A DNA stretch of 64,000 bases from an archaeon. Its GTDB lineage: Archaea > Nanobdellota > Nanobdellia > Pacearchaeales > DTIR01. The position numbers and the translations under genes were made by a program. Each line of letters begins with the position of its first letter. Position 1 is the first letter of the stretch. The notes under the pieces were generated by a model that was not told the origin of the DNA, did no database searches, and saw nothing but the letters and a program-made list of their open reading frames with translations. This document shows positions 7,842-44,848 of this stretch, one piece after another. The DNA lies in contig JAZDFA010000007.1 in the NCBI GenBank assembly GCA_043808285.1, positions 129,187 through 193,186 of the forward strand, written 5' to 3'.

Positions 7842-8110
7842 TAGATTATGATTATTATGTCAAGAACACTTGACAAAACTCGTGTGTTCTTGATCATCCT
7901 AAAGTTGCCTGCTAAATCAGTATTCAGCAACTTTATGATATTGAGTTTTATGGGGGGTTTCCTGGGTCGAGGAGGAAGAAAGTGATTAAGAATAAGCTGT
8001 ATGCTAAGTACTCTGTTGCTTGCATTTTTATTACGCCCGGAGAGGTGGGGGATTTGGGTGGGGCGATAGTTGGGGAACTTGAAAGGGAGTTCGGACGTGG
8101 GAGTGTGTGA
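7842..8110 (+). pseudogene. Decayed copy of the last ~190 bp of the NUMOD3/PD-(D/E)xK nuclease gene, interrupted by an 81-bp hairpin element
   Basis: TAGATTATGATTATTAT / ATTGAGTTTTATGGGGGGTTTCCTGGG...AAGTACTCTGTTGCTTGCATTTTTATTACGCC...GGGAGTTCGGACGTGGGAGTGTGTGA is collinear with 4834-5020 of the intact gene. The reading frame is not preserved upstream. Confidence 0.75.
7859..7939 (+). mobile_element. Hairpin MITE-like element (IS200/IS605-derivative-like), copy A
   Basis: It is inserted right after TTAT. Stem 1 pairs TCAAGAACAC (7860-7869) with GTGTTCTTGA (7884-7893). Stem 2 pairs TAAAGTTG (7900-7907) with CAACTTTA (7928-7935). It is absent from the homologous position of the intact gene. 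Confidence 0.7.
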
Positions 8111-10171: not shown

Positions 10172-12094
10172 TTAAAAATTAATTCTAGATTTAAAATAAT
10201 TCTCAACTTCTTTATCCACAAAATAAACATAACATCCCTTCATGCCTCTTGACATTAAGACACGATAAATATTCTTAACATACTCATCAAATCTCTCTCT
10301 GCTTTTTTTTAGCATTGGGTCTTTAGATCCATCACGGTTAGCTATCAAGCAATCATTCGCTTTGTCATATTTTAAATCAGCACCAACAATTACACCTATA
10401 TAATCGAACTCAAAACCCTGAGCAGTATAGATACATCCAACTTGTTTAATCCCTTCTGGTTTATATGCCCACTCATACCACCTAACATAACCTTCTGGAG
10501 GGGTAATGTCTCCATGAGTTTCCCAAGGCATTTCAAAACTTTCAATTTTAACATCTTTTACTAATTCTCCTTTTTCATTAAGTTTTGTAGACCAGGGCCA
10601 ACAATATCCTGCAACAATCCTAGCACTCATGCTTTTTTGTGAATTTTTCTCTTTTATTATCTCATAAAGTTGATTTGGAGAATCTATGATTTGAAAATCA
10701 AAATTATCTTCTTTTTTCAAAATCTTTTTTTCAGAAGTATATCCTAAAACATGTTCTAACCAATCCAGATAGTTATCTGAACCATTACATCTAAACTGCG
10801 AGGTTAGCTCCACTTCTTCGATATTTCTTCCCAACATCTCTCCAGTCTTTTTGATTAATTTAGTATTTCCTACTTCTGCGCCCCTGATCGTCTGTTTGTC
10901 ATCTATAAAAAAAATAGAGGTTTTTGCACACCTAATTAACTGCTCTACTTGAGGCATGGTTGTTCTATTCTCTTTTTTAGTGAATCTATGGTCTGATTTT
11001 TCACCAATTCTATGTGCTTCATCAACAATTAAGATATCTAACTCATTTTCACCAATTTTGGTAGGTATATATGGATCTAAACTGGTAAAGAGTATTTTGG
11101 CATTAACTTCTCCAACTTTTTGCCCCCTTTCCATCTTATATCTGATTGCTTCAATTAATGGTTTTGACCTAGATGAAAAGAATATCTTGTATTTCTTATC
11201 TTTATGACCTGCAAATTCTGCCAGAATATGTAAAGCGATTACTGTTTTACCAGTGCCAGGCCCGCCTTTTACTATAACCACACTTTTTTCATTGTTTGTT
11301 TCACCTTTTTTTATTTTATCAACAATCGCATTTCTAGCATATATCTGATCATCAAGCAAATTAAAATCAGATTCTTTTTTTATAACGGTGGAAGCATTAT
11401 CCAAAAGTTTTCTTGAGGGTCTTATGGGAGATTCCATGAACTTATTAAAAATATCAAAACCATCTTCTTGACCTAGTAACTCTTTCAATCTCTCTGCTAA
11501 TTTCTCTATATCGTTTTTTGTGTAGATTGGATATTTGGCTAGAACTTCACTATATTTGATGTCAAATAATCCTTTTCCTTCTTTTTTATCATAATTTGGG
11601 CAATAAGCACAACCAAATAAATTAACTTCTTTTTCTTCAAATATTTCCACAAAACCCAATAGATAATTACTGTATCCCTGAACTTGTTGTGAAGGATGCG
11701 CAACCTTTCTTTTATCTCCACCAGTATATGTTTCCACAAAGTTTCCTTCACAGTCTAATGCTTCTACATCTTTCCATTGCTTCATCTCTATATGCACGAC
11801 TATCCCTTTTCCGTGTTTATTCTTACCAAATAATAAACAGTCAATTCTTTTCTGGGTATAGGGAACTTGATATTCAAATGAAACATAAACATTTTCTAAA
11901 CAGCCTAATTCAATCAAATTTTTTATTACTTTTCCAGTATCTACCCAAGAATTAAACTCTGGCTCTCCAGCCTTTCTTCCGTAGGATTTTGAGAAGTTTT
12001 CTTGAAGTATGTCTGCAAATTTATTTAGTAATACATCTCTGACAAATTGTTTTTGCGGTGCGTCATAAATAATCAGTCTATTCAGCATTTTCAA
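10172..12094 (-). CDS. DUF2075-type SF1 helicase/ATPase with an N-terminal PD-(D/E)xK nuclease-like domain
   Basis: 640 aa. The N-terminus has IDCLLF..(n)..VVHIEMKQW (D...ExK). It also has Walker A GGPGTGKT, DEAHR, and the C-terminal YTAQGFEFDYIGVIVG and YRVLMSRGMKGCYVYF. The start is TTG at 12094 or ATG at 12088. Confidence 0.8.
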   Translation of the reverse strand: MKMLNRLIIYDAPQKQFVRDVLLNKFADILQENFSKSYGRKAGEPEFNSWVDTGKVIKNLIELGCLENVYVSFEYQVPYTQKRIDCLLFGKNKHGKGIVVHIEMKQWKDVEALDCEGNFVETYTGGDKRKVAHPSQQVQGYSNYLLGFVEIFEEKEVNLFGCAYCPNYDKKEGKGLFDIKYSEVLAKYPIYTKNDIEKLAERLKELLGQEDGFDIFNKFMESPIRPSRKLLDNASTVIKKESDFNLLDDQIYARNAIVDKIKKGETNNEKSVVIVKGGPGTGKTVIALHILAEFAGHKDKKYKIFFSSRSKPLIEAIRYKMERGQKVGEVNAKILFTSLDPYIPTKIGENELDILIVDEAHRIGEKSDHRFTKKENRTTMPQVEQLIRCAKTSIFFIDDKQTIRGAEVGNTKLIKKTGEMLGRNIEEVELTSQFRCNGSDNYLDWLEHVLGYTSEKKILKKEDNFDFQIIDSPNQLYEIIKEKNSQKSMSARIVAGYCWPWSTKLNEKGELVKDVKIESFEMPWETHGDITPPEGYVRWYEWAYKPEGIKQVGCIYTAQGFEFDYIGVIVGADLKYDKANDCLIANRDGSKDPMLKKSRERFDEYVKNIYRVLMSRGMKGCYVYFVDKEVENYFKSRINF

Positions 12095-12453
12095 AGCTCG
12101 TTATATTTCTTATTACTCCCCTTCGCCTTTTCAACGGGATATTTCTTTTCGTTCTTTTCCAGCTTCTTATTTAACTCTGTTGCCAAGTCTATGTCATATT
12201 TTTGGGCAAGCCTGATTAGAAAGTATAAAACGTCGGCCATCTCCTCGGAGATGTGCTGCTTTTTCTCTGGATTCTTGAACATTTCTTCTATTTCTTTTTC
12301 AGATTTAAACCTGAAATGCTCTAGAAGCTCTGAAGCTTCGGTAATAATGCCTATTGCAAGGTCTTTGGCTCCGTGATACTGGTCCCAGTCCCTGTCTTCG
12401 CAGAATTTCTTTACTTTTTCCTTTAGTTCCTGAATGTTGGTTTTGTGGTCCAT
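12091..12453 (-). CDS. MazG-like (DCTPP1-type) nucleoside triphosphate pyrophosphohydrolase
   Basis: 120 aa. FCEDRDWDQYH..KDLAIGIITEASELLEHF....EEMADVLYFLIRLA....DL......KLEKNEKKYP matches the all-alpha MazG/dCTPase pattern. Its stop lies within 4 nt of the DUF2075 start. Confidence 0.85.
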   Translation of the reverse strand: MDHKTNIQELKEKVKKFCEDRDWDQYHGAKDLAIGIITEASELLEHFRFKSEKEIEEMFKNPEKKQHISEEMADVLYFLIRLAQKYDIDLATELNKKLEKNEKKYPVEKAKGSNKKYNEL

Positions 12454-13257: not shown

Positions 13258-13943
13258 AGGTTTGATGCTGATGCATCAAATCCTCACTTCGTTCGGAGTG
13301 GGGTTTCCATGATGGTGTTCTTCTTGATTCAAGATATAATTTCTCACAACATCTTCTTGAACAAATCCTACTGAAGCTGCAAACTTGCCTCTGCTCCATA
13401 AATGCCCTTTGGGATACCTTAATCTTGCCTTTGGATTTTTCTCAAAGAAAAGTTTTGCAGATAATCCTTTTAAAATTAGCAAAACCTTTGATGCAGACAT
13501 ATTCAAAGAAACTTGCACTTCACAATGAATATGCTCTGGCATCACAGATAAAACAATAATTTTTATGTTATGCATGATTGCTGCCCTTCTTATGCAAGCG
13601 ATGCAAAGATTTTTTTGCTCTTCTTTAGCAAACATTTTGTAGGCATACTTTGATTTCCATTCAAGATGAAGCATCATCACCCCAACAGAATGAGAGTAAT
13701 GAGCATACTCATGTTTTTTATTTTCTGTATAGCTCCCGCTAAGTTGTATTTGTGTTTCCATTTTTCTCCGCACGGGGCGCGTTGTCGCGCACCGTAAAGT
13801 TTATTATCTGAGAGAAAGTTACAACTACATCTGATGATTTTCAGGGAGCTGCAACAAGCTCTCCCTGAATTATAATTTCTAAAGTAGAAAAAGATTACCG
13901 CAAACGCACTACTCCAGCCTAAAGGCTGGGGATTTCTTCTTAG
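13258..13943 (-). mobile_element. IS200-like element (boundaries approximate)
   Basis: tnpA is flanked by hairpins. On the 3' side: TTTGATGC-TGAT-GCATCAAA (13261-13280). On the 5' side: GCGCG-TTGT-CGCGC, CAGGGAG..CTCCCTG and CCAGCC-TAAA-GGCTGG (13786-13930). I saw no terminal inverted repeats, as expected for this family. Confidence 0.5.
13276..13773 (-). CDS. tnpA: IS200/IS605-family Y1 (HUH) transposase TnpA
   Basis: 165 aa. It has the HUH motif PEHIHCEV, LKGLSA, and LWSRG...SVG.....V.NYILNQ with the catalytic Tyr, collinear with IS200 TnpA. Confidence 0.85.
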   Translation of the reverse strand: MRRKMETQIQLSGSYTENKKHEYAHYSHSVGVMMLHLEWKSKYAYKMFAKEEQKNLCIACIRRAAIMHNIKIIVLSVMPEHIHCEVQVSLNMSASKVLLILKGLSAKLFFEKNPKARLRYPKGHLWSRGKFAASVGFVQEDVVRNYILNQEEHHHGNPTPNEVRI

Positions 13944-14957: not shown

Positions 14958-15002
14958 CAATTTAATAATAAGCTTTATTAATAGATTTTTCAAGTGTTAT
15001 TC

Positions 15003-16711
15003 ATGAAAGTAGCGATAGTTCACAAGGACAAGTGCCTTCCGGAAAAATGTGCAAATCTCTGCGCAAGATTATGCCCGGTTAACCGCAAAGGCGAGAATTG
15101 CATAGAGATAAATGTGAAAGCAAAGATAGAGGAGACAGCATGCATAGGCTGCGGCATATGCCAAAATAGATGCCCTTTTGGCGCAATAAGCATCACTAAT
15201 CTTCCTTCTCAGCTGGACAAGAGCCTTTTTTACCGGTATGGGAAAAATGGATTCTGTCTTTATGGGCTTCCCACCCCAAAAGTGGGAGTTTTAGGATTAT
15301 TGGGCAGAAATGGTGTTGGAAAATCAACAGCATTGAATCTCCTTTCAGGAAAATTAAAAATAAATCTGGGACAGGACGAAGTATCAGATGAAAAAATAAG
15401 GCAGTTCTTGCAGGGTTCAGAGCTTTTGGGGTATTTTGACAATATCAATAATATTTCTTTTTCAGTAAAGCCTCAGAATCTTTCAGAAGTTGCAAAACAC
15501 GACCTTACTGGCCTGGAATTGATAAAAAAGTTTGGAGATGACAAAGAGATAGAGAATTTTTGTAATATGCTAAAGATTAATTTTCTAGACAGGAAGCTTG
15601 CGCAGCTTTCCGGTGGAGAGCTTCAAAAATTATCAATAGCAATTTGTGGCATGAAAAATCAGATGTATATCTTTTTGACGAGCCATCAGCATTCTTGGAT
15701 ATACAGGAAAGGCTTCGTGTTTGCGAGTTCATAGAGCATATTGCAAAGAAAAGCAAGGTAATTGTTGTAGAGCACGATTTGCTCATGCTAGATTACATGA
15801 CAGATTTCATAAACATATTTTATGGGGTTCAGGCATGCTACGGAATTGTCTCGGGGATAAAGCCTTCAAGAAGGGCAATAAATGATTACTTGGCTGGGCA
15901 ATTGCCTGAAGAGAATGTGAGATTTAGGGACAAGGAAATAAGCTTTAAGTTCATTCATTCAAGAGATGCAAGAAAGGAAGTAATAGCTTCATGGGATAAG
16001 TTCACTAAGACGTTTGAAAACTTCAAGATGGAGGCAGATGCTGGAAGCATACCCCTCAAGGGAATAGTGGGGATTGCAGGAAAAAATGGCACGGGAAAAA
16101 CAACTTTTGTGAAGTGCATTGCAGGAATAGAAAAAACTGACTTTGGCACTATTGATTTGAAGATGAAAGTTTCTTACAAGCCCCAGTACATCCAAGGTGA
16201 TGAAAGGCTTGTTGGGGAAGTTGTAAAGGAAGAAAGAATACCAAAAGCAATTGTTTCAGCTTTTTCAATGGAAGGTGTTATGACCAAGAAAACAAAAAAT
16301 CTTTCAGGGGGGGAACTTCAAAAATTGGCTATTGCATTATGCTTGTCAAAAGAAGCAGACCTTTACTTGCTTGATGAGCCCTCGGCTTTTTTGGATGTTG
16401 AAGAAAGGCTGCAGTCAGCAAAAACAATAAGGAGTATAATTGATGAGAAAGAGAAAGCTGCATTTATAGTAGAGCATGACTTGCTTTTCCTTAGCTATGT
16501 TGCAGATTCATTGGTTGTTTTCTCTGGAGAGCCCGCAAAGCATGGATTTGCACGCTCTCCAATTGAATTTACTCATGGGCTTAATGAGTTGATGAAGGAG
16601 CTTAATATAACAATAAGGAAGGACAAGGATTCTGGCAGGCCGAGGATAAACAAGAAGGATTCAGTTCTTGACAGGGAGCAGAAAGAAAAGGGGAAGTATG
16701 TTGAGCTGTGA
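15003..16711 (+). CDS. ABCE1 (RNase L inhibitor / ribosome recycling ATPase), interrupted by a 1-nt frameshift at an A5 run (15654-15658)
   Basis: The N-terminal 2x[4Fe-4S] cysteines are C..KC..LCARLCP and CIGCGICQNRCP. NBD1 has GRNGVGKST and LSGGELQK. After the shift come VYLFDEPSAFLD and NBD2 with GKNGTGKTT, LSGGELQK and LYLLDEPSAFLD. Track ORFs 14994..15734 and 15644..16711 are its two halves. Confidence 0.9.
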
Positions 16712-28608: not shown

Positions 28609-28911
28609 GTGAGATGTATGAAATGCCCAAATTGTAGAAACACAAATATTTCTAAAAGAGGATTTAGATATGACCAAATTGGAAAGAAACAGAGGTTTCT
28701 TTGTAATAAATGTGAAAAGACTTTTATTAAAAAAGATGGATTTGAAAGAATGAGGCATAAGAAAAGAGATATTGCAAGGGCAATACACCTCCATAATGAT
28801 GGTCTTTCTCTTTTTCAAATTCAAAATCATCTTTGGCAACATGATGGTGTAAAAGTAAGCAGAGAAACTGTAAGAGAATGGTGTGATAGATATTCTGTTT
28901 TTTTAAAATAG
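28609..28911 (+). CDS. IS6-family transposase, N-terminal zinc-finger/HTH part (frame A)
   Basis: A CPNC...(n)..CNKC zinc ribbon is followed by LSLFQIQNHLWQHDGVKVSRETVREWCDRY, which resembles the IS26 Tnp N-terminal HTH. It ends at TAG 28909-28911 right after T7A4. Confidence 0.75.
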   Translation: MRCMKCPNCRNTNISKRGFRYDQIGKKQRFLCNKCEKTFIKKDGFERMRHKKRDIARAIHLHNDGLSLFQIQNHLWQHDGVKVSRETVREWCDRYSVFLK

Positions 28912-29539
28912 GATAAGAAAAATTGTTAAGCCAAAAATTAAAGGAGGCATTCATTATGATGAAAAATACATTAAAGTTAATGGAAAAGAGAATTATGATT
29001 TGAATGCTATTGATAACAAAACCAAGTTTGTTTTAGCTCATTTGTTCGTCGAGAAACGAACAAAACAGAAATGTTATGAATTTCTAAAGCAGATAAAAGA
29101 TTCTTGTTACCATCAAATAATCGAAACTTACAATCAAGAAAAGCATAAGAAAGTTGAGGATAGAAAATTAATAAATTTTGTTTGTGATAAATTTGCAGGT
29201 TATAAATCTGCTTTTAGTAGAAATTTTTATAGAATTGCAAATTTGTCTTTTGGAGTTCCAATTGCTTGTAAAAAATATGGATTAGAGCATAACAATAATC
29301 CAATTGAGAGATACAATGGAAAAATAAAAGATAGGATGAATGGGATGAGAAAAGGTTTTGGTAGTTTTTCAGGAGCAGAAAATTTTATGAATTTGCAATG
29401 TGTAATTCATAACTTTGTAAATCCCCATCAGGAATTGAAAGATAAAACTCCTGCAGAAATGGCAGAAATAGTTTTACCCTTAGGAAGAAATAAGATACTA
29501 GGATTAGCGAGATATTTGGTTAATGTCCCGTTAATCTGA
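28910..29539 (+). CDS. IS6-family transposase, DDE catalytic part (frame A+1)
   Basis: The frame is open from 28910. HYDEKYIKVNG...LNAIDNKTK, VCDKFAGYKSAF and NNNPIERYNGKIKDRM..GFGSF align with DETYVKVNG, NTDKAPAY and NNVIECDHGKLKRI..GFKS of IS26-type transposases. Confidence 0.8.
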   Translation, partial: RIRKIVKPKIKGGIHYDEKYIKVNGKENYDLNAIDNKTKFVLAHLFVEKRTKQKCYEFLKQIKDSCYHQIIETYNQEKHKKVEDRKLINFVCDKFAGYKSAFSRNFYRIANLSFGVPIACKKYGLEHNNNPIERYNGKIKDRMNGMRKGFGSFSGAENFMNLQCVIHNFVNPHQELKDKTPAEMAEIVLPLGRNKILGLARYLVNVPLI

Positions 29540-33377: not shown

Positions 33378-33443
33378 TCTTCCAAAACCAAAAATTATAT
33401 TGAGCCACCTTACTCCTAACTGCTAAAATGTCACGTTAATTAG
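33378..33443 (+). repeat. Dispersed intergenic repeat (IGR family), forward copy
   Basis: TTCTTCCAAAACCAAAAATTATATTGAGCCACCTTACTCCTAACTGCTAAAATGTCACGTTAATTAG. Confidence 0.75.
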
Positions 33444-33483
33444 AAAAAGGTTATAGCTATTTTTCACATCAAAAAAACATGAG

Positions 33484-33638
33484 TATTACCGCACCTTAAA
33501 AGGTGCGGTTTGTGTGTTTTTTGGATGCAAGGAAATTCTTTTGAATTTCCGGCACAGAAAATCCAGTAAGATTTTCTTGTGCTCAAGAACACGCGACTAC
33601 ACACTTTAAATGTGTAGTTTTAGTCAAGTGTTCTTGAC
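33484..33638 (-). mobile_element. Hairpin MITE-like element, copy C (longer variant, minus orientation)
   Basis: On the minus strand it starts after TTAT with GTCAAGAACACTTGAC...CGCGTGTTCTTGA. Further hairpins follow (CTACACA..TGTGTAG, GAAAATC..GATTTTC, GGAAATTC..GAATTTCC, CCGCACCTT..AAGGTGCGG). It ends in ..GCGGTAATAC. Confidence 0.6.
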
Positions 33639-33676
33639 ATAAAAAAATTAATAAATGCCAGTTGGTTAGCCCATGA

Positions 33677-34300
33677 ATGCCTCATAAAATCTACAACAGG
33701 CTAAAAGAGGGACTAAAAAAAGTAAGCATAGGAATAGGCCCTGATTGCCATAAAAAAGTTAAGCATATACTTGATGACATCGAGTCACACTTAGGTTTTC
33801 TTTATGAGATGGTTATAAACGACCCAAAAACCGGGGTTTACAACAATAAGTTCTTCGAGGAGATTACAAGCATAGAAATAGAAAAGGCAAAAAGAGGCCA
33901 TGCATTAGCATTGATTATTTCTGATATAGACAATTTCAAAAGAGTTAACGATATATTTGGCCACAAGAAAGGAGATGCAATACTCAAGTATGTTGTAAAG
34001 ATGATAAGAGAAAACACAAGAAAAATAGATGTCATAGGAAGATTTGGCGGGGAGGAGTTTACAGTGCTTCTTCCTTTTACAGATTACCCCAAGGCAAACA
34101 TGGTTGCAGAGAGAATAAGGAAGAAAATAGAAAGCAGCAAGTACCTTCAAAGGCATAAAGTTACAGTCAGCATAGGTCTCTCAACATATGAGGAAAAAGA
34201 TACAATTCAGAAATTATTCAACAAGGCAGATTCTGCATTGTATTATGCAAAGAATCATGGCAAGAACATGACAGTCATGCATAAGGATTTAAAAGAGTAG
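33677..34300 (+). CDS. Stand-alone GGDEF-domain diguanylate cyclase
   Basis: 207 aa. It has DPKTGVYNNKFF, ISDIDNFKRVNDIFGHKKGD, an intact GGEEF active site preceded by RKID five residues upstream (RxxD I-site), VSIGLS, and ADSALYYAKNHGKN. Confidence 0.85.
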   Translation: MPHKIYNRLKEGLKKVSIGIGPDCHKKVKHILDDIESHLGFLYEMVINDPKTGVYNNKFFEEITSIEIEKAKRGHALALIISDIDNFKRVNDIFGHKKGDAILKYVVKMIRENTRKIDVIGRFGGEEFTVLLPFTDYPKANMVAERIRKKIESSKYLQRHKVTVSIGLSTYEEKDTIQKLFNKADSALYYAKNHGKNMTVMHKDLKE

Positions 34301-34319: not shown

Positions 34320-35363
34320 ATGAAAACAGGCACAGCAGACTTGCCTCTGCATTATGGAGACTGCCCAAAATGGCTTTTTCCAAGAATGGTAAAATTGTCA
34401 AGGGCAATTTCAGATGTAATAGTGCAAGAGTATGGCACTTCTCAACTTCTAAAACGGCTTTCAAATCCCTATTGGTTTCAGGCATTCGGCTGCGTTCTTG
34501 GATTTGATTGGCATTCTTCCGAGCTTACAACAACTGTATGCAGTGCATTAAAAGAGGGGCTAAAAGACAGCAAAGAGATATTTGTTGCTGGCGGAAAAGG
34601 AAGGGTAAGCCGCAAGGCAATAGAAGAGATAAGCAGAATGGGCTATGAATTGAATCTGGGCGGAGAGAAAATTGCGCAGCTTTCAAAAGCAAGCAGGTTG
34701 GCAGCAAAAATAGACAATAATGCAATACGGGATGGTTTTGCTATCTATTACCATTCTTTTATTTTTGACAATAATGGCAATTGGGTCGTGATACAGCAGG
34801 GAATGAATGACATTACAAGCTATGCAAGAAGATATCATTGGCTAAGCGATATAGTTGATGAAAATATGACCTCTCCCCAGTCAGAAGAATCAAGAAATGC
34901 AAGTGTTGACCTTGTGAATGATAATCCAAAACATCTGGAGCGCTTCATCTCAAAAGGAAGCGGCGGCGGACAGCTTTCAATAAATGATTTCTCAAATAGC
35001 AATAGTTTCACTATGCCTAAAGAGCATTTTCCAAAGATTGATTTTGATATGAATGCAATGCTAAAAGCTTACGAGATACAGCCGCAGGATTACGAGGCGC
35101 TTTTGCTTATCAAAGGGCTTGGAGCAAAGACAGTAAGGGCTCTTGCATTGATATCTGACTTAGTGCACGGATGCAAGGCTTCCGGGCAAGACCCCTGCAA
35201 ATATAGTTTTGCCCACGGAGGCAAAGATGGATGGCCTGAAAAAGTGAATAAAGAAAGATATGATGAGTCTATTAACATATTAAAAGATGCCATAGATAAC
35301 GCAAAAATAGGCAGCAAGCTTAAAGTTGATGCATTAAGAAGGCTTGGTAGATATGCAAATTAA
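34320..35363 (+). CDS. DUF763-family protein
   Basis: 347 aa. The N-terminal ADLPLHYGDCPKWLFPRMVKLSRAI..IVQEYG....LLKRLSNPYWFQAF is the pattern I associate with DUF763. It has an HhH-like LIKGLGAKTVRALALIS near the C-terminus. Confidence 0.65.
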   Translation: MKTGTADLPLHYGDCPKWLFPRMVKLSRAISDVIVQEYGTSQLLKRLSNPYWFQAFGCVLGFDWHSSELTTTVCSALKEGLKDSKEIFVAGGKGRVSRKAIEEISRMGYELNLGGEKIAQLSKASRLAAKIDNNAIRDGFAIYYHSFIFDNNGNWVVIQQGMNDITSYARRYHWLSDIVDENMTSPQSEESRNASVDLVNDNPKHLERFISKGSGGGQLSINDFSNSNSFTMPKEHFPKIDFDMNAMLKAYEIQPQDYEALLLIKGLGAKTVRALALISDLVHGCKASGQDPCKYSFAHGGKDGWPEKVNKERYDESINILKDAIDNAKIGSKLKVDALRRLGRYAN

Positions 35364-35534: not shown

Positions 35535-36122
35535 ATGATGTTAGGCAAGATATTATCTGAATGGAAGGAATTCTGGGAGATTGCAGAGATTGGAGGCATA
35601 GCAAGGAGATACTTTGCAATAAATCTTTTTGATGAAATACTCACAATAATAGGCATACTAATAGCTAGCTTTTTTTCAAATGTTACTGATTTAAAAGTTG
35701 TTGCCTTGGCAGTAATTGGCGCATCAATAGCAATGACTGTATCAGGAGTATGGGGTGCTTATCTCACAGAGATGGCTGAAAGGAAGGGCAAGATAAGAAG
35801 ATTGGAAAAAAGGATGTCAATAAGCTTGGACAGGTCTCCAATAGCAAGAGCCCATAAATTTGCATCTGTTTTTCTTGGATTAGTTGATGGAGTGCTGCCA
35901 ATGATTGCAGCGCCATTGATGATTTTCCCGCTATTCCTGGCAATACCAGTTAATACTGCTTATTACATTTCATTTGCAACTTCATTCTTCCTGCTGTTCG
36001 TTACGGGGGCTTATCTTGGAAAGATAAGCAAAGAGAATCTTTTTGTTTCAGGAATAAGAATGCTTTTTGTAGGGCTCTTGTGCGCAGTATTAATCTATAT
36101 TGTTGAGCTTATTATAAAATAA
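35535..36122 (+). CDS. VIT1/CCC1-related integral membrane protein (short archaeal type)
   Basis: 195 aa with four or five helices. RRYFAINLFDEILTIIG...SGVWGAYLTEMAERK resembles the short VIT-like family. Confidence 0.45.
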   Translation: MMLGKILSEWKEFWEIAEIGGIARRYFAINLFDEILTIIGILIASFFSNVTDLKVVALAVIGASIAMTVSGVWGAYLTEMAERKGKIRRLEKRMSISLDRSPIARAHKFASVFLGLVDGVLPMIAAPLMIFPLFLAIPVNTAYYISFATSFFLLFVTGAYLGKISKENLFVSGIRMLFVGLLCAVLIYIVELIIK

Positions 36123-37222: not shown

Positions 37223-37293
37223 GATGCAAAACCCTAAAAATATTCTTCGTAACCCTACACCTATACTGCTAAATGTCACGTGAATTAACAACC
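37223..37293 (+). repeat. Dispersed intergenic repeat (IGR family), forward copy
   Basis: GATGCAAAACCCTAAAAATATTCTTCGTAACCCTACACCTATACTGCTAAATGTCACGTGAATTAACAACC. Confidence 0.8.
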
Positions 37294-37312: not shown

Positions 37313-37387
37313 ATTTCTGTAAAAACAAGAAAATCCACTAGTGAGCCTTACTCCTACACTGCTAAAATGTCACGTCAATTAACAACC
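37313..37387 (+). repeat. Dispersed intergenic repeat (IGR family), forward copy
   Basis: ATTTCTGTAAAAACAAGAAAATCCACTAGTGAGCCTTACTCCTACACTGCTAAAATGTCACGTCAATTAACAACC. Confidence 0.8.
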
Positions 37388-37409: not shown

Positions 37410-37493
37410 GTCAAGAACACTTGAAAAAACTCGCGTGTTCTTGATCATTCTAAAGTTGTTGTGTGCAGACAATAACACTTAACAACTTTATAA
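37410..37493 (+). mobile_element. Hairpin MITE-like element, copy B
   Basis: It starts after TTAT (37406-37409). The stems are TCAAGAACAC..GTGTTCTTGA and TAAAGTTGTT..AACAACTTTA. It is collinear with copy A at 7859-7939. Confidence 0.65.
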
Positions 37494-38149: not shown

Positions 38150-38692
38150 TTAATTACCTCCCTTCTCTATTTCATTTACAATTTCTTTGTATTTTTTATG
38201 TATGAACTTTTTGTCAAATTCATAGAATTCTATTATCATTGCCTGCTTTTCCTGATTATTGAAGTATTGCATTACAGGAATGAAGAATTGCTTGTCTTCT
38301 TTGGCTATATGCTCCGGGTAAAACTTTGCAAGTGTTTCCATACTGTATACTGCCTGCGCTATTGCAGATTTATCTCCTTTCTTATATTTTTCTTTTGCAT
38401 CAACAAGTCTCTTTACATATTCCCTACCTACAACATGCTCATGTATCAGCTCATCCATCATTTTTCTATGCTCTTCTGTCATCTCTTTTTTTGATAAGTC
38501 CCTAAAAAGTATGTACTCCTCCTTTCCATGATGCAGTTTGTCAGCATATGTTTTTATGAAATCAATAATAGAATCAATCAACTCTATATTAAGAGAATTC
38601 TCTTTTTTTATCCTTGTTGTCTCACAGTTCATGATGCATATCATCCGCTCAATCAATCTATGTTCAATCATCAACGGAGCTACAGGCATCAT
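38150..38692 (-). CDS. Hemerythrin-like (HHE cation-binding) domain protein
   Basis: 180 aa. It has PLMIEHRLIE, KLHHGKEEYILF and PEHIAKEDKQFF, which are repeated H...E/H..KE(D/E)..(L/F)F motifs. Confidence 0.65.
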   Translation of the reverse strand: MMPVAPLMIEHRLIERMICIMNCETTRIKKENSLNIELIDSIIDFIKTYADKLHHGKEEYILFRDLSKKEMTEEHRKMMDELIHEHVVGREYVKRLVDAKEKYKKGDKSAIAQAVYSMETLAKFYPEHIAKEDKQFFIPVMQYFNNQEKQAMIIEFYEFDKKFIHKKYKEIVNEIEKGGN

Positions 38693-40397: not shown

Positions 40398-41546
40398 TCA
40401 AGACAGCCTTTCCATGTAATCTTTATATCCAAACTCTTTAATGACCTTTAACTTCTTCTTTTTCGTGAATATTGCAATTGATGGAAGATTTATACCATTA
40501 AATGTTGTGTTCTTTACCATTGAATATATGGCCATGTCTAGGAAAATTAGTTTGTCTCCAACTTTGAGAGGTTTTGAAAAAGAATAATCTCCTATGACGT
40601 CTCCTGCCAGACAGGTGTTTCCTGCTAGTCTGTATGTGTACTTCTTTTTGTTTGGAATATTTGCGCCAACAACATTTGGTCTGTATGGCATTGCAATCAC
40701 ATCAGGCATGTGAGCCTCTGCAGATGTATCAAGTATCGCAATATCCATGCCGTTATTTACTATATCCAGCACAGATGCAACAAGTATGCCGCTGTTGAGG
40801 GCAACTGCCTCTCCAGGCTCAAGATAGACATTGATATTATTGTATTTTTTTCTGAAGCTATTGATTATCTTTACAAGCCGGTTTACATCATAATCCTTTC
40901 TTGTTATATGGTGGCCTCCACCAAAATTAACCCACTGCATCTTTTTGATGTATTTGCCAAATTTTTTCTCGTAAACCCTGATTACTCGTTCAAGTGTATC
41001 TGAATTCTGTTCGCACATTGCATGAAAATGCAAGCCAGTTATGCCTGTTAAATCTTTTCCTTTAAATTCCTTGAGCATTATGCCCAATCTTGAGTTTTTT
41101 GCGCAAGGATTATACAATTTCACTTTTATTTCAGAATACTCCGGGTTTACTCTAAGTCCGCATTTTATTTTTTTTGGGATTATTTTTTTGAATTTTTCCC
41201 ATTGAGAAAATGAATTGAAGATAATGTAATCTGCATACCTGATAATCTCTTTGAATTCCTCTTCCTTGTATGCCGGAGAGAAAACATGGACTTCTTTACC
41301 AAACTTTTCATATCCGAGTCTTGCTTCGTTTAATCCTGAAGCGCAAATTCCCTTTAGGTATTTTTTTACTTGTGGGAACGTGCTCCACATTGCATACCCC
41401 TTTAATGCAAGAAGTATGCTGCATCCTGTCCTTTTTTGTACAGAATCAAGAATATGCAGATTGTTCTCCAGAAGCCTCTCATCCAAGATGTAGGATGGAG
41501 TTTTTACTTTTCTGGTATGAAACCCGAGAAATCCGTAACTTTCCAT
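40398..41546 (-). CDS. nspC: Carboxynorspermidine/carboxyspermidine decarboxylase
   Basis: 382 aa. It has the N-terminal TPSYILDERLLENN, an alanine-racemase-fold PLP enzyme pattern (NFGGGH, EPGEAV), and the C-terminal CLAGDVIG. Confidence 0.85.
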   Translation of the reverse strand: MESYGFLGFHTRKVKTPSYILDERLLENNLHILDSVQKRTGCSILLALKGYAMWSTFPQVKKYLKGICASGLNEARLGYEKFGKEVHVFSPAYKEEEFKEIIRYADYIIFNSFSQWEKFKKIIPKKIKCGLRVNPEYSEIKVKLYNPCAKNSRLGIMLKEFKGKDLTGITGLHFHAMCEQNSDTLERVIRVYEKKFGKYIKKMQWVNFGGGHHITRKDYDVNRLVKIINSFRKKYNNINVYLEPGEAVALNSGILVASVLDIVNNGMDIAILDTSAEAHMPDVIAMPYRPNVVGANIPNKKKYTYRLAGNTCLAGDVIGDYSFSKPLKVGDKLIFLDMAIYSMVKNTTFNGINLPSIAIFTKKKKLKVIKEFGYKDYMERLS

Positions 41547-42736
41547 GGCAAACCTTGCTCGTTGAGCTCCTCCATAAATTGGTCTGGGTCAAGTTCTTCA
41601 ATATTGAAAACTCCTTTGCCCTTCCATTTTCCTTCAAGAATAAGTTTTGCCGCTATCATTGTAGGAACCCCAGTAGTATAAGAGATTGCCTGCGCCTTTA
41701 CTTCCTTGTAGCATTCAGCGTGGTCGCATACATTGTATATGTACACTGTTTTTTCTTTGCCATCTTTCTTACCATTTATAACACAGCCTATTACTGTCTT
41801 TCCAGTATATTTTTCTGCCAAAGAGGATGGATCTGGAAGAACTGCCTTTAAGAATCTTAGGGGGATAACTTCTTTCCCTTCATAATTGACTGGGTCTATT
41901 CTAGTCATGCCCACATTTTGAAGGACCTTCAAGTGATTTATATAATTGTCAGAGAATGTCATCCAGAATCTTATTCTTTCTAAGCCCTTAATGTTCTTTA
42001 CTAAAGACTCTTCTTCTTCATGATAAAGCAAATAGCTTTCTTTTTTTCCTACAATTGGATAATCAAATCCAAAATGTATTGAGCTTGTGTCAAGTATTGC
42101 AGGTGTTTCTATCCATTTTCCTTTTGCCCAGTGCCTTACAACCTGAGTTACTTCTCTTATGTTTATTTCAGGATTAAAATTTGTTGCAAATGCTTTTCCA
42201 TGATTTCCTGCATTGCAGTCAAGTATCTCTATTGTTTTTATTGTATCAAAAAGATGCTTTTGAGCGTATGCGCAAAAAACATTTGTTACGCCAGGGTCAA
42301 AACCTGCTCCCAAAAGCGCCATTATCCCTTTTTTCTTGTATTTATCCTGATATGCCCATTGCCATTTGTATTCGAATTTAGCAACATCCAGTGGTTCATA
42401 ATTAGCAGTATCAAGATAATTAATGCCTGTTTCCAAGCATGCATCCATAATTGTAAGATCTTGGTAAGGCAATGCAACATTTATTACCAATTCTGGCTTG
42501 AATTCTTTTAAGAGTTTAACAAGCTCTGGGACATTGTCAGCATCAACTTGGGCAGTTTTTATTTCAACACCAATATCCTTTTTTACTTCTTCCTTTATCT
42601 TGTCGCATTTTTCTTTTGTTCTGCTTGCAAGCATTATTTCCTTGAACACCTGCTTGTTCATTGCACATTTCTTTACAACAACGGTACCCACACCGCCTGC
42701 ACCTATTATCAGTACCCTTCCGGTTTTATTTTTCAT
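41504..42736 (-). CDS. Saccharopine-dehydrogenase-family carboxynorspermidine/carboxyspermidine synthase
   Basis: 410 aa. It has VLIIGAGGVGTVV (Rossmann fold), GAGFDPGVTNVF, and gene-order linkage with nspC (43-nt overlap). Confidence 0.8.
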   Translation of the reverse strand: MKNKTGRVLIIGAGGVGTVVVKKCAMNKQVFKEIMLASRTKEKCDKIKEEVKKDIGVEIKTAQVDADNVPELVKLLKEFKPELVINVALPYQDLTIMDACLETGINYLDTANYEPLDVAKFEYKWQWAYQDKYKKKGIMALLGAGFDPGVTNVFCAYAQKHLFDTIKTIEILDCNAGNHGKAFATNFNPEINIREVTQVVRHWAKGKWIETPAILDTSSIHFGFDYPIVGKKESYLLYHEEEESLVKNIKGLERIRFWMTFSDNYINHLKVLQNVGMTRIDPVNYEGKEVIPLRFLKAVLPDPSSLAEKYTGKTVIGCVINGKKDGKEKTVYIYNVCDHAECYKEVKAQAISYTTGVPTMIAAKLILEGKWKGKGVFNIEELDPDQFMEELNEQGLPWKVTDFSGFIPEK

Positions 42737-43598
42737 TTTTTTTACAAAATTTATAGCTTAATAATGTGTATATTAACTTTGCTGAAATAAAATCAGGCGC
42801 TTTATTAACTTTACTGGGGCATAATTCAACAACGTCGAAACCAACAATATTCTTTGAATCAGAAACTGCCTTTAGCAATTTTAATACTGAATACCAATCC
42901 ATCCCCCCAGGTTCAGGCGTGCCTGTAGAAGGCAGTATAGAAGGATCAAAAACATCCAGGTCGATTGTGATATAAACATTATTTGGAAGTTTTTTTACTG
43001 CATCTTTAATCCAGCTGTCTGAATCATGTATATCCTGTGCAAAGAAAATAGAATCTTTATTCGCGTTTTTTAGCTCTGATGAGTCCATGCTTCTTATCCC
43101 TACAGAGACTATATTGGATGACACTTCTTGCGCCCTTGCAATAACACATGCATGATTGTACTTGCTGCCCTCATAACTCTCTCTCCTATCGCTGTGTGCA
43201 TCAAGATGAAGTATGCCAATGTTTTTGTAATGGTCTGCAAAGGCATTAATCGCACCTATTGAAATTGAATGTTCTCCTCCAATTAATACCACAAACTTTT
43301 CATCATCTAGGAATTTCTTTGTGCTTTCATTAACTTTTTTTATCATTGAGATGGAGTCTTTTTCATCTATCTCTTCTGCAGTGAATATTCCGTTCTTGTA
43401 AACTTCACTGTCAGTTTCAATATCATAGAATTCAAGGTTAGGTGATGCATCAATTATCGCTTTAGGCCCCTTGTCTGCCCCTTTCATCCATGTGCTTGTT
43501 TTATCAAATGGAATAGGCAGAATAATTATCTTAGAACTATCATACTGGCAGAATTCTTTTGGGAAGCCGCCAAAATTCTGGATTTTTTTTTGTTTCAT
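42726..43598 (-). CDS. speB: Agmatinase (arginase/ureohydrolase family)
   Basis: 290 aa. It has GGEHSIS, LHLDAHSD, TIDLDVFDPS and the PEPGG metal-site motifs. Confidence 0.85.
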   Translation of the reverse strand: MKQKKIQNFGGFPKEFCQYDSSKIIILPIPFDKTSTWMKGADKGPKAIIDASPNLEFYDIETDSEVYKNGIFTAEEIDEKDSISMIKKVNESTKKFLDDEKFVVLIGGEHSISIGAINAFADHYKNIGILHLDAHSDRRESYEGSKYNHACVIARAQEVSSNIVSVGIRSMDSSELKNANKDSIFFAQDIHDSDSWIKDAVKKLPNNVYITIDLDVFDPSILPSTGTPEPGGMDWYSVLKLLKAVSDSKNIVGFDVVELCPSKVNKAPDFISAKLIYTLLSYKFCKKNEK

Positions 43599-43601
43599 TT
43601 G

Positions 43602-44225
43602 TTATTGTTTAACAAGAGATTCAAGGCTATTTTCTCTCTTTGCTCCATTGTGTTCTTCGTTTCCTGCCGATTTATTAACATCAGTTATAAAAACCGCAGC
43701 AGCAATTACAGTAGTCCATAAATCCCCCTTTGGCACTTCTGCTGACTGGCATATATGTGTTGTCTTGAATATATGCCCAGATGCCTTGTATATCTGTTCT
43801 CTTTCTTTCCATGCCTTATCCGGGTCAAATTCTACTCCCAGTGTTGTTGCAAGCATTGTTGCAGCCAAGTCTTCTGCATATTCTCCCGCTTCATCAGCTG
43901 TCTTGCCCTCGCCATGATATTCAGATAAGTATCCATATTGCCTGTCTCTTGCCTTTGGCACAGCAACTCCAAGTGCGGCAGATATAAGCCTATTTCGTTT
44001 GTCTGCAGATATGCGTGCCATGACGCAGTAAGTTATATCTCCTGGCTCAAGCAGTTGTATTCCTCTTTCTCTGGTTATTATCTGGCAATTTGGCGGCAGA
44101 ATGCTTGAAACATAAACAAGATTGCATTTTTCTATGCCTGCTTTTCTTAATGCAAGTTCAAATGAACCCAACCCTTCCTTATGGATTCCATACCCTTTTG
44201 TAAAGAATACTTTTTTTGGTGCCAT
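43602..44225 (-). CDS. pdaD: Pyruvoyl-dependent arginine decarboxylase, paralog 1
   Basis: 207 aa. [35 protein letters not shown] contains the self-processing Ser-Ser site. Confidence 0.85.
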
Positions 44226-44233
44226 TTACTTAT

Positions 44234-44848
44234 CTATATCTTTTTAACTTCTACTTTAATGTTATTTTTATTGCTATTCTCATCCTTAGAATCAATTATA
44301 AAAACTGCTGCTGCAATACAAGTAGTCCAGAGTCCCTCTTTATTTCCTGTTGCAGACTGGCATATGTTTGTTGTCTTGAATATATGCTTAGATGCCTTGT
44401 ATATCTTTTCTCTTTCTTTCCATGCCTTATCCGGGTCAAATTCTACTCCCAGTGTTGTTGCAAGCATTGTTGCAGCCAAGTCTTCTGCGTACTCTCCTGC
44501 TTTTTCGTCTGTCTCGCCGCAGGAATGATGCTCTGATAAATATCCATACTGACTAGCTCTTGCCTTTGGCACAGCAACTCCAATTGCAGATGCTACTAAT
44601 CTATTTGGTTCATTTGTTTCATTCTTTGCCATTACGCAAAATGTTATCTGTCCAGGCTCAAGCAGTTTAATTCCGTTTTTCTTAGGTATTATCTGGCAAT
44701 TTGGCGGCAGAATGCTTGAAACATAAACAAGATTGCATTTTTCTATTCCTGCATTTCTTAATGCTTTTTCAAATGATGCAAGCTTGTTTTTGTCTACGCC
44801 TACTCCTTTTGTAAGGAACATTTTTGTAGGCAATATTTGTGAATACAT
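44234..44848 (-). CDS. pdaD: Pyruvoyl-dependent arginine decarboxylase, paralog 2
   Basis: 204 aa. It has the same signature ([38 protein letters not shown]). It sits in tandem with paralog 1. Confidence 0.85.

Follow-up and report, generated by a model that had tools for sequence, protein, structure and literature searches.

The 64,000-nucleotide (nt) stretch of archaeal DNA analysed here (contig JAZDFA010000007.1 of assembly GCA_043808285.1, ‘the window’ below) carries, at 33677..34300 on the forward strand, a gene for a 207-aa protein made of an N-terminal helical hairpin and a GGDEF domain. We consider it probable, from sequence comparison and structural modelling, that this protein is a minimal, dimeric and product-inhibited diguanylate cyclase, whose gene was acquired once from bacteria long ago and has since been inherited vertically in Pacearchaeota and Nanoarchaeia of the DPANN archaea. 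The kind of enzyme is not new; the unusual point is the host. An earlier note on this DNA had described a stand-alone GGDEF protein, apparently intact in its catalytic residues, from an archaeal genome, and the markers and motifs reported below support that description.

The open reading frame (ORF) starts with ATG and its coordinates include the stop codon; the ORF list, Pfam, TIGR00254 and an exact match at NCBI (MFH1248974.1, ‘MAG: GGDEF domain-containing protein [archaeon]’, on a contig of 200,499 bp) all point to it. The catalytic domain, residues 48-197 (33818..34267, forward strand), is matched by the Pfam GGDEF model PF00990 with E=1e-41 (142.8 bits versus a cut-off of 23.8), and the NCBIfam model TIGR00254 matches with E=5e-47 (159.6 bits versus a cut-off of 37.4). 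Three motifs can be read directly off the translation: D49-P-K-T-G-V-Y-N-N-K-F-F60, D83-I-D-N-F-K-R-V-N-D-I-F-G-H-K-K-G-D100, and R115-K-I-D118 followed by the five residues VIGRF and then G124-G-E-E-F128. The last of these contains both the motif of the inhibitory site (I-site; R115-K-I-D118, 34019..34030, forward strand) and that of the active site (A-site; G124-G-E-E-F128, 34046..34060, forward strand). The patterns GG[DE]EF and RxxD placed five residues before GG[DE]EF are both present in 123 of 123 sequences in an alignment of the family described below. A 207-aa frame with all of these motifs, including RKID five residues before GGEEF, is what the earlier note had reported, and the translation and the two domain models confirm it.

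The nearest solved structures belong to active diguanylate cyclases, namely 3ign (E=4e-30), the phytochrome-linked IsPadC, WspR and PleD, and when the protein is aligned with active cyclases solved with bound ligand, the motifs DxD-FK-ND-GH-GD, RxxD, RxGGEEF and AK-xx-G[KR]N are identical. The metal-binding DxDxFK motif is in place (D83, D85 and K88 align with that of 3ign, IsPadC and WspR), as are the guanine-specifying residues N91 and D100 and the active-site arginine with its GG[DE]EF sequence (R122-F-G-G-E-E-F128). In the C-terminal phosphate-binding motif AK-x-x-G-R-N (K442 and R446 of PleD) K192 is conserved and the arginine position is taken by K196. The ERIR segment aligns with 3ign, a structure crystallised with c-di-GMP, and R146 in ‘AERIR’ is likely, by its position in the sequence, to be the secondary I-site arginine. 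For the equivalents in PleD we take a constant offset of 244, with residues numbered after Chan et al. (2004) and Wassmann et al. (2007). The mapping presumably gives the metal ligand D327 and K332, the guanine-binding N335 and D344, the I-site residues R359 and D362, R366, the A-site residues E370 and E371 (within G368-F372), and R390 as the secondary I-site residue corresponding to R146; this numbering agrees with the alignment at the level of aligned ranges. On the criteria of sequence and predicted structure that were tested, with K196 as the one departure, the window protein belongs to the GGDEF diguanylate cyclases.

An AlphaFold2 model based on an alignment of 113 sequences (predicted local distance difference test, pLDDT, 94; predicted template-modelling score, pTM, 0.83) places two helices at the N terminus (residues 2-19 and 22-47), the second of which would continue directly into a canonical GGDEF domain; pLDDT is 79-89 over residues 1-50. 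The palm-like GGDEF fold was recovered by Foldseek, with 3ign as the best match (E=2e-16, TM-score 0.90 to the target, root-mean-square deviation 1.9 Å). Among the GGDEF structures matched at E ~1e-16, two are of particular relevance to the N-terminal part: 3i5c, a GCN4-WspR fusion, and 6ttr, in which DgcB combines a coiled coil with a GGDEF domain. Residues 1-47 (33677..33817, forward strand) have no Pfam domain match. The hairpin there is delineated by the AlphaFold2 model, by the 3i5c and 6ttr matches and by conservation across the family, with P22, L42 and Y43 invariant in a profile alignment of the 13 sequences from the first homology search, and HMMER aligns the GCN4 zipper of 3i5c with residues 35-47. 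From the model and from these analogies we infer that the hairpin acts as a dimerisation stalk.

In the mechanism that we propose, the N-terminal hairpin of ~47 residues would pair two subunits, either as a coiled coil or as a four-helix bundle, and the pairing would set two GGDEF domains, each loaded with GTP, side by side. Their GGEEF active sites could then condense two molecules of GTP into c-di-GMP, and the product may rebind to the intact I-site (R115xxD118 together with R146), limiting the output. Since the protein is devoid of a sensor domain, control would be expected to come from I-site feedback, from the level of expression or possibly from a protein attaching to the stalk, in the way that SiaC acts on SiaD.

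The gene belongs to a family much larger than it appeared at first. Our first homolog search, a word-indexed search with a single sequence, yielded ~13 clusters, of which five have 70-72% identity and a few others 44-52%; every one is a short stand-alone protein. A profile was built from those 13 and its search produced at least 123 clusters of the same ~196-aa protein, so that a family of ~13 clusters was rejected; the 120 proteins listed among the profile matches are 192-228 aa long and score 286-341 bits. An exhaustive hidden Markov model search of representatives at 50% identity found at least 13 short full-length members among the best 150 matches. The impression of a rare gene is thus due to the limited sensitivity of the first search, and the rarity supposed in the earlier note is not supported. 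All named family members are Pacearchaeota, Nanoarchaeia or Nanoarchaeota; their contigs include JAQTLT010000001.1 of GCA_028714745.1 (447 kilobases, kb), Ga0265297_10000045 at JGI (464 kb) and one of 623 kb (the largest), and one protein comes from a 2016 Rifle genome. Assembly GCA_001787285.1 carries the gene too. Homologs common in related archaea and with a known role would, according to the same note, have refuted its finding; common they are, and no role is known for them.

Twelve site positions (D83, D85, K88, N91, D92, H96, D100, R115, D118, R122, E127 and F128) are invariant in 123 of 123 members despite identities of 41-72%, which is strong evidence, at the level of sequence, for purifying selection on catalysis and on product inhibition. 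Apparently we are dealing with an inherited, core-like gene across the Pacearchaeota, a whole group of tiny archaea.

That the host is an archaeon follows from the window itself. It contains a dph5 diphthine synthase gene (TIGR00522, E=2e-61), an elongation factor of the aEF1A type, ABCE1/RLI, two pyruvoyl-dependent arginine decarboxylases (ArgDC), TrmB and RNase HII as archaeal markers, along with a RuBisCO large-subunit homolog. The EF1A protein has 79-83% identity with sequences that carry the name Candidatus Pacearchaeota or Nanoarchaeota, therefore the host is a DPANN archaeon. The GC content is flat across the window (~0.35) and shows no break in composition; the GGDEF gene has a GC content of 0.357 versus 0.367±0.025 for the genes of the window, a third-position GC content within range and a mid-range codon-usage distance. 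The GGDEF locus is native to the archaeal genome, as these observations confirm.

The gene order tells the same story over larger distances. Close orthologs (70-72% identity), which lie on independent contigs from different samples, share the arrangement CofD-MGMT-dph5-small membrane protein-TatD-GGDEF-(variable)-VIT1-like. Members with 44-46% identity keep a larger block, ArgRS-TrmB-IleRS-dph5-DtdA-GGDEF...RNaseHII-SMC, and the window has ArgRS, TrmB, IleRS, dph5 and RNase HII in the same order. In a third clade of the family the GGDEF gene stands beside genes for an alpha/beta hydrolase and a thermosome (the identities of thermosome, dph5 and DtdA at the related loci were checked with NCBIfam).

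A phylogeny of the GGDEF domain, proposed as a check in the earlier note, was built as a neighbour-joining tree. The 12 full-length members from the first search, which make up the three clades confirmed by gene context, are monophyletic in 465 of 500 bootstraps (93%). The nearest outgroup, protein P0014 at locus L023, has a weakly supported sister position (180 of 500 bootstraps) and is most likely bacterial, because its contig carries a FapF-like outer-membrane barrel/transporter and a BcsA-PilZ cellulose synthase. It had been a candidate for an archaeal GGDEF protein encoded near BcsA-PilZ; this candidate was dropped, and P0014 was kept as an outgroup only.

These data bear on the possibility that the gene was acquired horizontally in recent times, or that the locus is a bacterial mis-bin or a chimeric assembly. 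GGDEF domains are overwhelmingly bacterial, and so are the closest relatives outside the family (P0014 at L023); a scan of GTDB representatives with an exact peptide pattern gave only bacteria, at 33-41% identity, and missed the archaeal family; dispersed hairpin repeats lie upstream of the gene, and IS200 and IS240-like genes are found elsewhere in the window. All this would fit a recent arrival, yet the orthologs at 70-72% identity occupy an identical slot among archaeal housekeeping genes, the distant members retain the wider syntenic block, there is no anomaly in GC content or codon usage, the family is monophyletic and archaeal markers flank the gene on the same contig. We regard a recent acquisition or assembly artefact as largely refuted and give it hardly any credence, and this applies both to the horizontal acquisition at this site and to the bacterial mis-bin that the earlier note had contemplated. 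Monophyly, conserved housekeeping synteny at the loci compared and native composition and codon usage imply that any transfer from bacteria was ancient rather than local. The simplest history compatible with the sequences is that the gene came from bacteria once, in the distant past, and was inherited vertically from then on.

A more substantial alternative is that the protein is not chiefly a c-di-GMP synthase, and either makes another product, such as cyclic GMP-AMP (cGAMP), pppGpG or other oligonucleotides, or uses its I-site or A-site mainly to bind nucleotides as a receptor or scaffold. There are GGDEF enzymes that make other products, the Hypr GGDEFs among them (cited in PMC10249747), and no cognate phosphodiesterase or receptor was found nearby. 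The Hypr cGAMP synthases of the Geobacter GacA type share the GGDEF fold with the window protein (PDB 6d9m is among its structural matches); in contrast to them, however, the specificity-switch position is Asp (D100) instead of Ser in 123 of 123 family members, and N91 is invariant too. Since the guanine-specifying N91 and D100 are both present, the window protein would not be a cGAMP-making variant of the Hypr kind. A pure receptor, on the other hand, would have no need of the full A-site, which is invariant. The replacement of the usual arginine by K196 in the window clade also speaks for altered chemistry, as does a weak similarity to the Cas10 palm (Pfam E=4e-6, PADLOC E=4e-4); still, the Cas10 matches are weaker than the GGDEF matches by orders of magnitude, and there is no CRISPR, CARF or defence context. 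Altogether we think this alternative unlikely, if worth keeping in mind.

An identification as a Cas10 or type III CRISPR cyclase palm was considered separately and rejected: Cas10-Cmr2_palm2 covers part of the domain and scores 27.3 bits, the cut-off being 27, TIGR02578 scores 16.5 bits versus a cut-off of 170, and the PADLOC match to Cas10 has E=4e-4. No cas genes were found in the window, and PADLOC gave nothing more than the weak Cas10 similarity for the GGDEF protein, so that membership of the gene in a defence system was rejected as well.

Returning to the minimal diguanylate cyclase, which we favour, several points weigh against it. At the position of K196, the equivalent of PleD R446, this clade has Lys; 21 of 123 family members have Lys there and 101 have Arg. 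This Lys is the sole departure from the mapped site residues, the five aligned structures having the Arg of ‘GRN’ at this position. The change from Arg to Lys is a conservative one. The PleD numbering has the range-level agreement mentioned above, and dimerisation via the hairpin would follow from a model of the monomer and from analogy. A Pfam search (E≤0.01) of the 78 window ORFs that do not overlap and have 70 aa or more detected no PilZ, EAL or HD-GYP domain, as the earlier note had observed for the window, and none is encoded by the genes called up to 10 kb away from nine archaeal homologs. Similarly, no c-di-GMP riboswitch reached the Rfam gathering score in the 64-kb window or in 140 kb of related loci. 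A complete c-di-GMP signalling circuit in these genomes is thus not demonstrated, the negative results covering the window and the flanking loci only. Finally, c-di-GMP has not been detected in any archaeon according to a 2023 review of archaeal second messengers (PMC10249747).

The lack of classical receptors and phosphodiesterases in the sequence examined, combined with a protein free of sensor domains, raises another possibility, namely that c-di-GMP is not used in an internal circuit and is directed outward, at the host or at neighbouring bacteria of episymbiotic DPANN cells. DPANN archaea are generally symbionts with reduced genomes (PMC8204110). Against such an outward signal, the idea is inferential throughout, the gene has no export system linked to it, its neighbours are housekeeping genes that differ between clades, and many c-di-GMP receptors lack a recognisable signature, so that a failure to find them is weak evidence. 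We see it as quite improbable, less so than a recent acquisition and more so than a different product.

The downstream receptors of the proposed cyclase are probably outside the classical PilZ, EAL and HD-GYP set. We would suggest, tentatively and with some doubt prevailing, that Pacearchaeota and related DPANN archaea either run a genuine c-di-GMP pathway, whose effectors and probably phosphodiesterases are unrelated to PilZ, EAL and HD-GYP, or export c-di-GMP to influence their hosts. If either were true, the archaea too would have c-di-GMP as a second messenger. A small, soluble protein with no sensor offers a direct route to testing whether archaea use this ‘bacterial’ signal, and the family defines a set of genomes in which non-canonical c-di-GMP receptors can be sought.

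Two genes follow the GGDEF gene in the same direction. The first, 19 nt downstream (34320..35363, forward strand), is a DUF763 gene (Pfam E=2e-109), located where the earlier note had placed it. DUF763 stands next to GGDEF in two of four close orthologous contexts (the window and L016), is missing at L013-L015, and is replaced at L017 by an unrelated gene for 322 aa. The co-occurrence at orthologous loci speaks against the operon that the note had thought possible, and DUF763 was rejected as a conserved partner on grounds of synteny; it is a facultative neighbour. We found no literature on DUF763 function. The second gene (35535..36122, forward strand) encodes a VIT1-like membrane protein of 195 aa (Pfam VIT1, E=1e-6). 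It is co-directional and at the same position in all four close contexts (L013, L014, L016 and L017) and does not adjoin the GGDEF gene in more distant members of the family, its conservation being confined to the close clade.

Some further genes near the locus or its relatives were recorded. On a Pacearchaeota contig (Ga0265297_10000045, locus L026), a diadenylate cyclase gene (DAC, PF02457; 10592-11164, reverse strand) is convergent with the GGDEF gene and abuts its 3′ end; a conserved DAC-GGDEF pairing was rejected because a short ORF at the same position of L025 is unrelated to DAC. At L013 a 154-nt transfer RNA match, probably an intron-containing archaeal tRNA, lies just 3′ of the VIT1-like gene (11396-11549, reverse strand). 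In the window a stand-alone hemerythrin-domain protein is encoded at 38150-38692 on the reverse strand (Pfam E=4e-11), with no linkage to the GGDEF gene shown. Hemerythrin domains are sensor modules fused to some bacterial GGDEF cyclases.

Upstream, a hairpin-rich spacer of 363 nt separates the GGDEF gene from a divergent TatD gene. The hairpin-rich intergenic element at 33480..33645 has a fold z-score of -8.0, inverted repeats and, at 33583-33637, one copy of a palindromic repeat, TCAAGAACAC...GTGTTCTTGA. The window has three copies of this repeat (7860-7893, 33583-33637 and 37411-37444), all of them intergenic, and six of its half-sites versus 0.1 expected by chance; in the copy 5′ of the GGDEF gene, the loop itself contains another hairpin. 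A 36-nt motif, CCTTACTCCTA.CTGCTAAAATGTCACGT.AATTA, occurs at 33408-33442 and 37346-37381 with 94% identity, in both cases between genes, and in a weaker copy at 37254-37287. Each copy of the motif is followed, some tens to ~140 nt further downstream, by a copy of the palindromic hairpin; the combination could be a small repeat element of composite structure, or it could serve as a regulatory site.

The earlier note had taken this upstream sequence for mobile-element debris. The hairpin element and the repeats are real, but their mobile origin is not demonstrated. Nothing connects the repeats with a mobile element or with the way in which the GGDEF gene arose, and that gene is older than they are. 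A role of the upstream hairpins as a riboswitch was rejected: Rfam gives only sub-threshold chance matches, and the hairpins lie 5′ of a putative TATA box. The orthologous loci L013 and L016 have an ORF of 74-88 aa in the position of the hairpin element; as a shared feature this small ORF was discarded, there being no counterpart in the window.

The putative promoter element, AAAAAAATTAATAAAT (33641..33656, forward strand), lies 21-36 nt 5′ of the ATG and consists of a purine-rich stretch, a candidate B-recognition element (BRE), followed by a TTAATA(A/T)AT box. The sequence AGAAAAATTAATATAT is present at the same position in the orthologous loci L013 and L016, and TA-rich boxes of the TTTTATATAT type in L025-L027. 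Such a sequence match suggests, with the reservation that the genome is AT-rich, that the gene may have its own BRE/TATA promoter and a leaderless or short-leader transcript.

Several other features of the window deserve mention. The ABCE1/RLI homolog is split into two overlapping ORFs (14994-15734 and 15644-16711, forward strand) with Fer4_RLI, Fer4 and ABC_tran domains in the first and ABC_tran/SMC_N in the second, as might result from a frameshift, from an error in sequencing or from decay into a pseudogene. A possible defence island at 10172-12453 (reverse strand) encodes a Schlafen-group-3-like helicase (640 aa; PADLOC matches to PDC-S41, Nhi and AbiO) and then a MazG-like protein; near it is the gene of an IS200-like Y1 transposase (13276-13773, reverse strand). 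Between IleRS and CofD, where the orthologous loci have no insertion, two adjacent ORFs (28609-29539, forward strand) look like a fragmented insertion sequence: the ORF at 29000-29539 has a weak match to a DDE transposase of the IS240 type, and that at 28609-28911 is Cys-rich and has no Pfam match. The two pyruvoyl-dependent arginine decarboxylase paralogs are in tandem (43602-44848, reverse strand) and, together with adjoining genes of agmatinase/arginase-family, saccharopine-dehydrogenase-like and Orn/DAP decarboxylase-like type (40398-43598), make a polyamine-biosynthesis cluster.

Among known systems the closest in design are cyclases in which a coiled coil or stalk is joined to a GGDEF domain: Caulobacter DgcB (6ttr), the engineered GCN4-WspR fusion (3i5c) and the Pseudomonas aeruginosa SiaD stalk (7e6g). 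Like them, the window protein is predicted to have a helical stalk at its N terminus, joined directly to a canonical GGDEF domain whose A- and I-sites are intact (similarity detected by Foldseek and, for 3i5c, by sequence also), and by analogy with them one would expect dimerisation-driven synthesis with product inhibition. Unlike them, it has a short helix-turn-helix hairpin of ~47 residues for a stalk, no further input domain and a DPANN host, and, in contrast to SiaD, no SiaC-like partner is known for it. With PleD (1w25) and WspR (3bre) it shares 34-39% identity over the GGDEF domain and the same residues at all mapped metal, guanine and I-site positions. It differs from both in having no REC input domain, therefore activation by phosphorylation is not possible.

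Reviews up to 2022-2023 describe GGDEF and c-di-GMP as essentially absent or unconfirmed in archaea (PMC5847659, PMC10086821, PMC10249747), in line with the statement of the earlier note that c-di-GMP signalling is overwhelmingly bacterial. We found no paper describing the present DPANN family, and NCBI and JGI already annotate members as GGDEF proteins. Galperin et al. 2018 listed as archaeal GGDEF cases CAJ37382 of Methanocella arvoryzae and a REC protein with inactivated GGDEF domain in ‘Ca. Micrarchaeum acidiphilum’, and flagged them as possible contamination (PMC5847659); according to Römling 2022, archaeal GGDEF proteins still need confirmation on archaeal contigs (PMC10086821). The window protein resembles those cases in that a GGDEF domain is encoded in an archaeal genome, in the Micrarchaeum case also of a DPANN lineage. 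In contrast to such isolated cases, one of them inactivated, and going by their descriptions, the window protein is intact and belongs to a family of at least 123 clusters with archaeal synteny. With invariant catalytic residues, housekeeping synteny and contigs of hundreds of kilobases, the locus and its family supply the archaeal-contig confirmation for one lineage.

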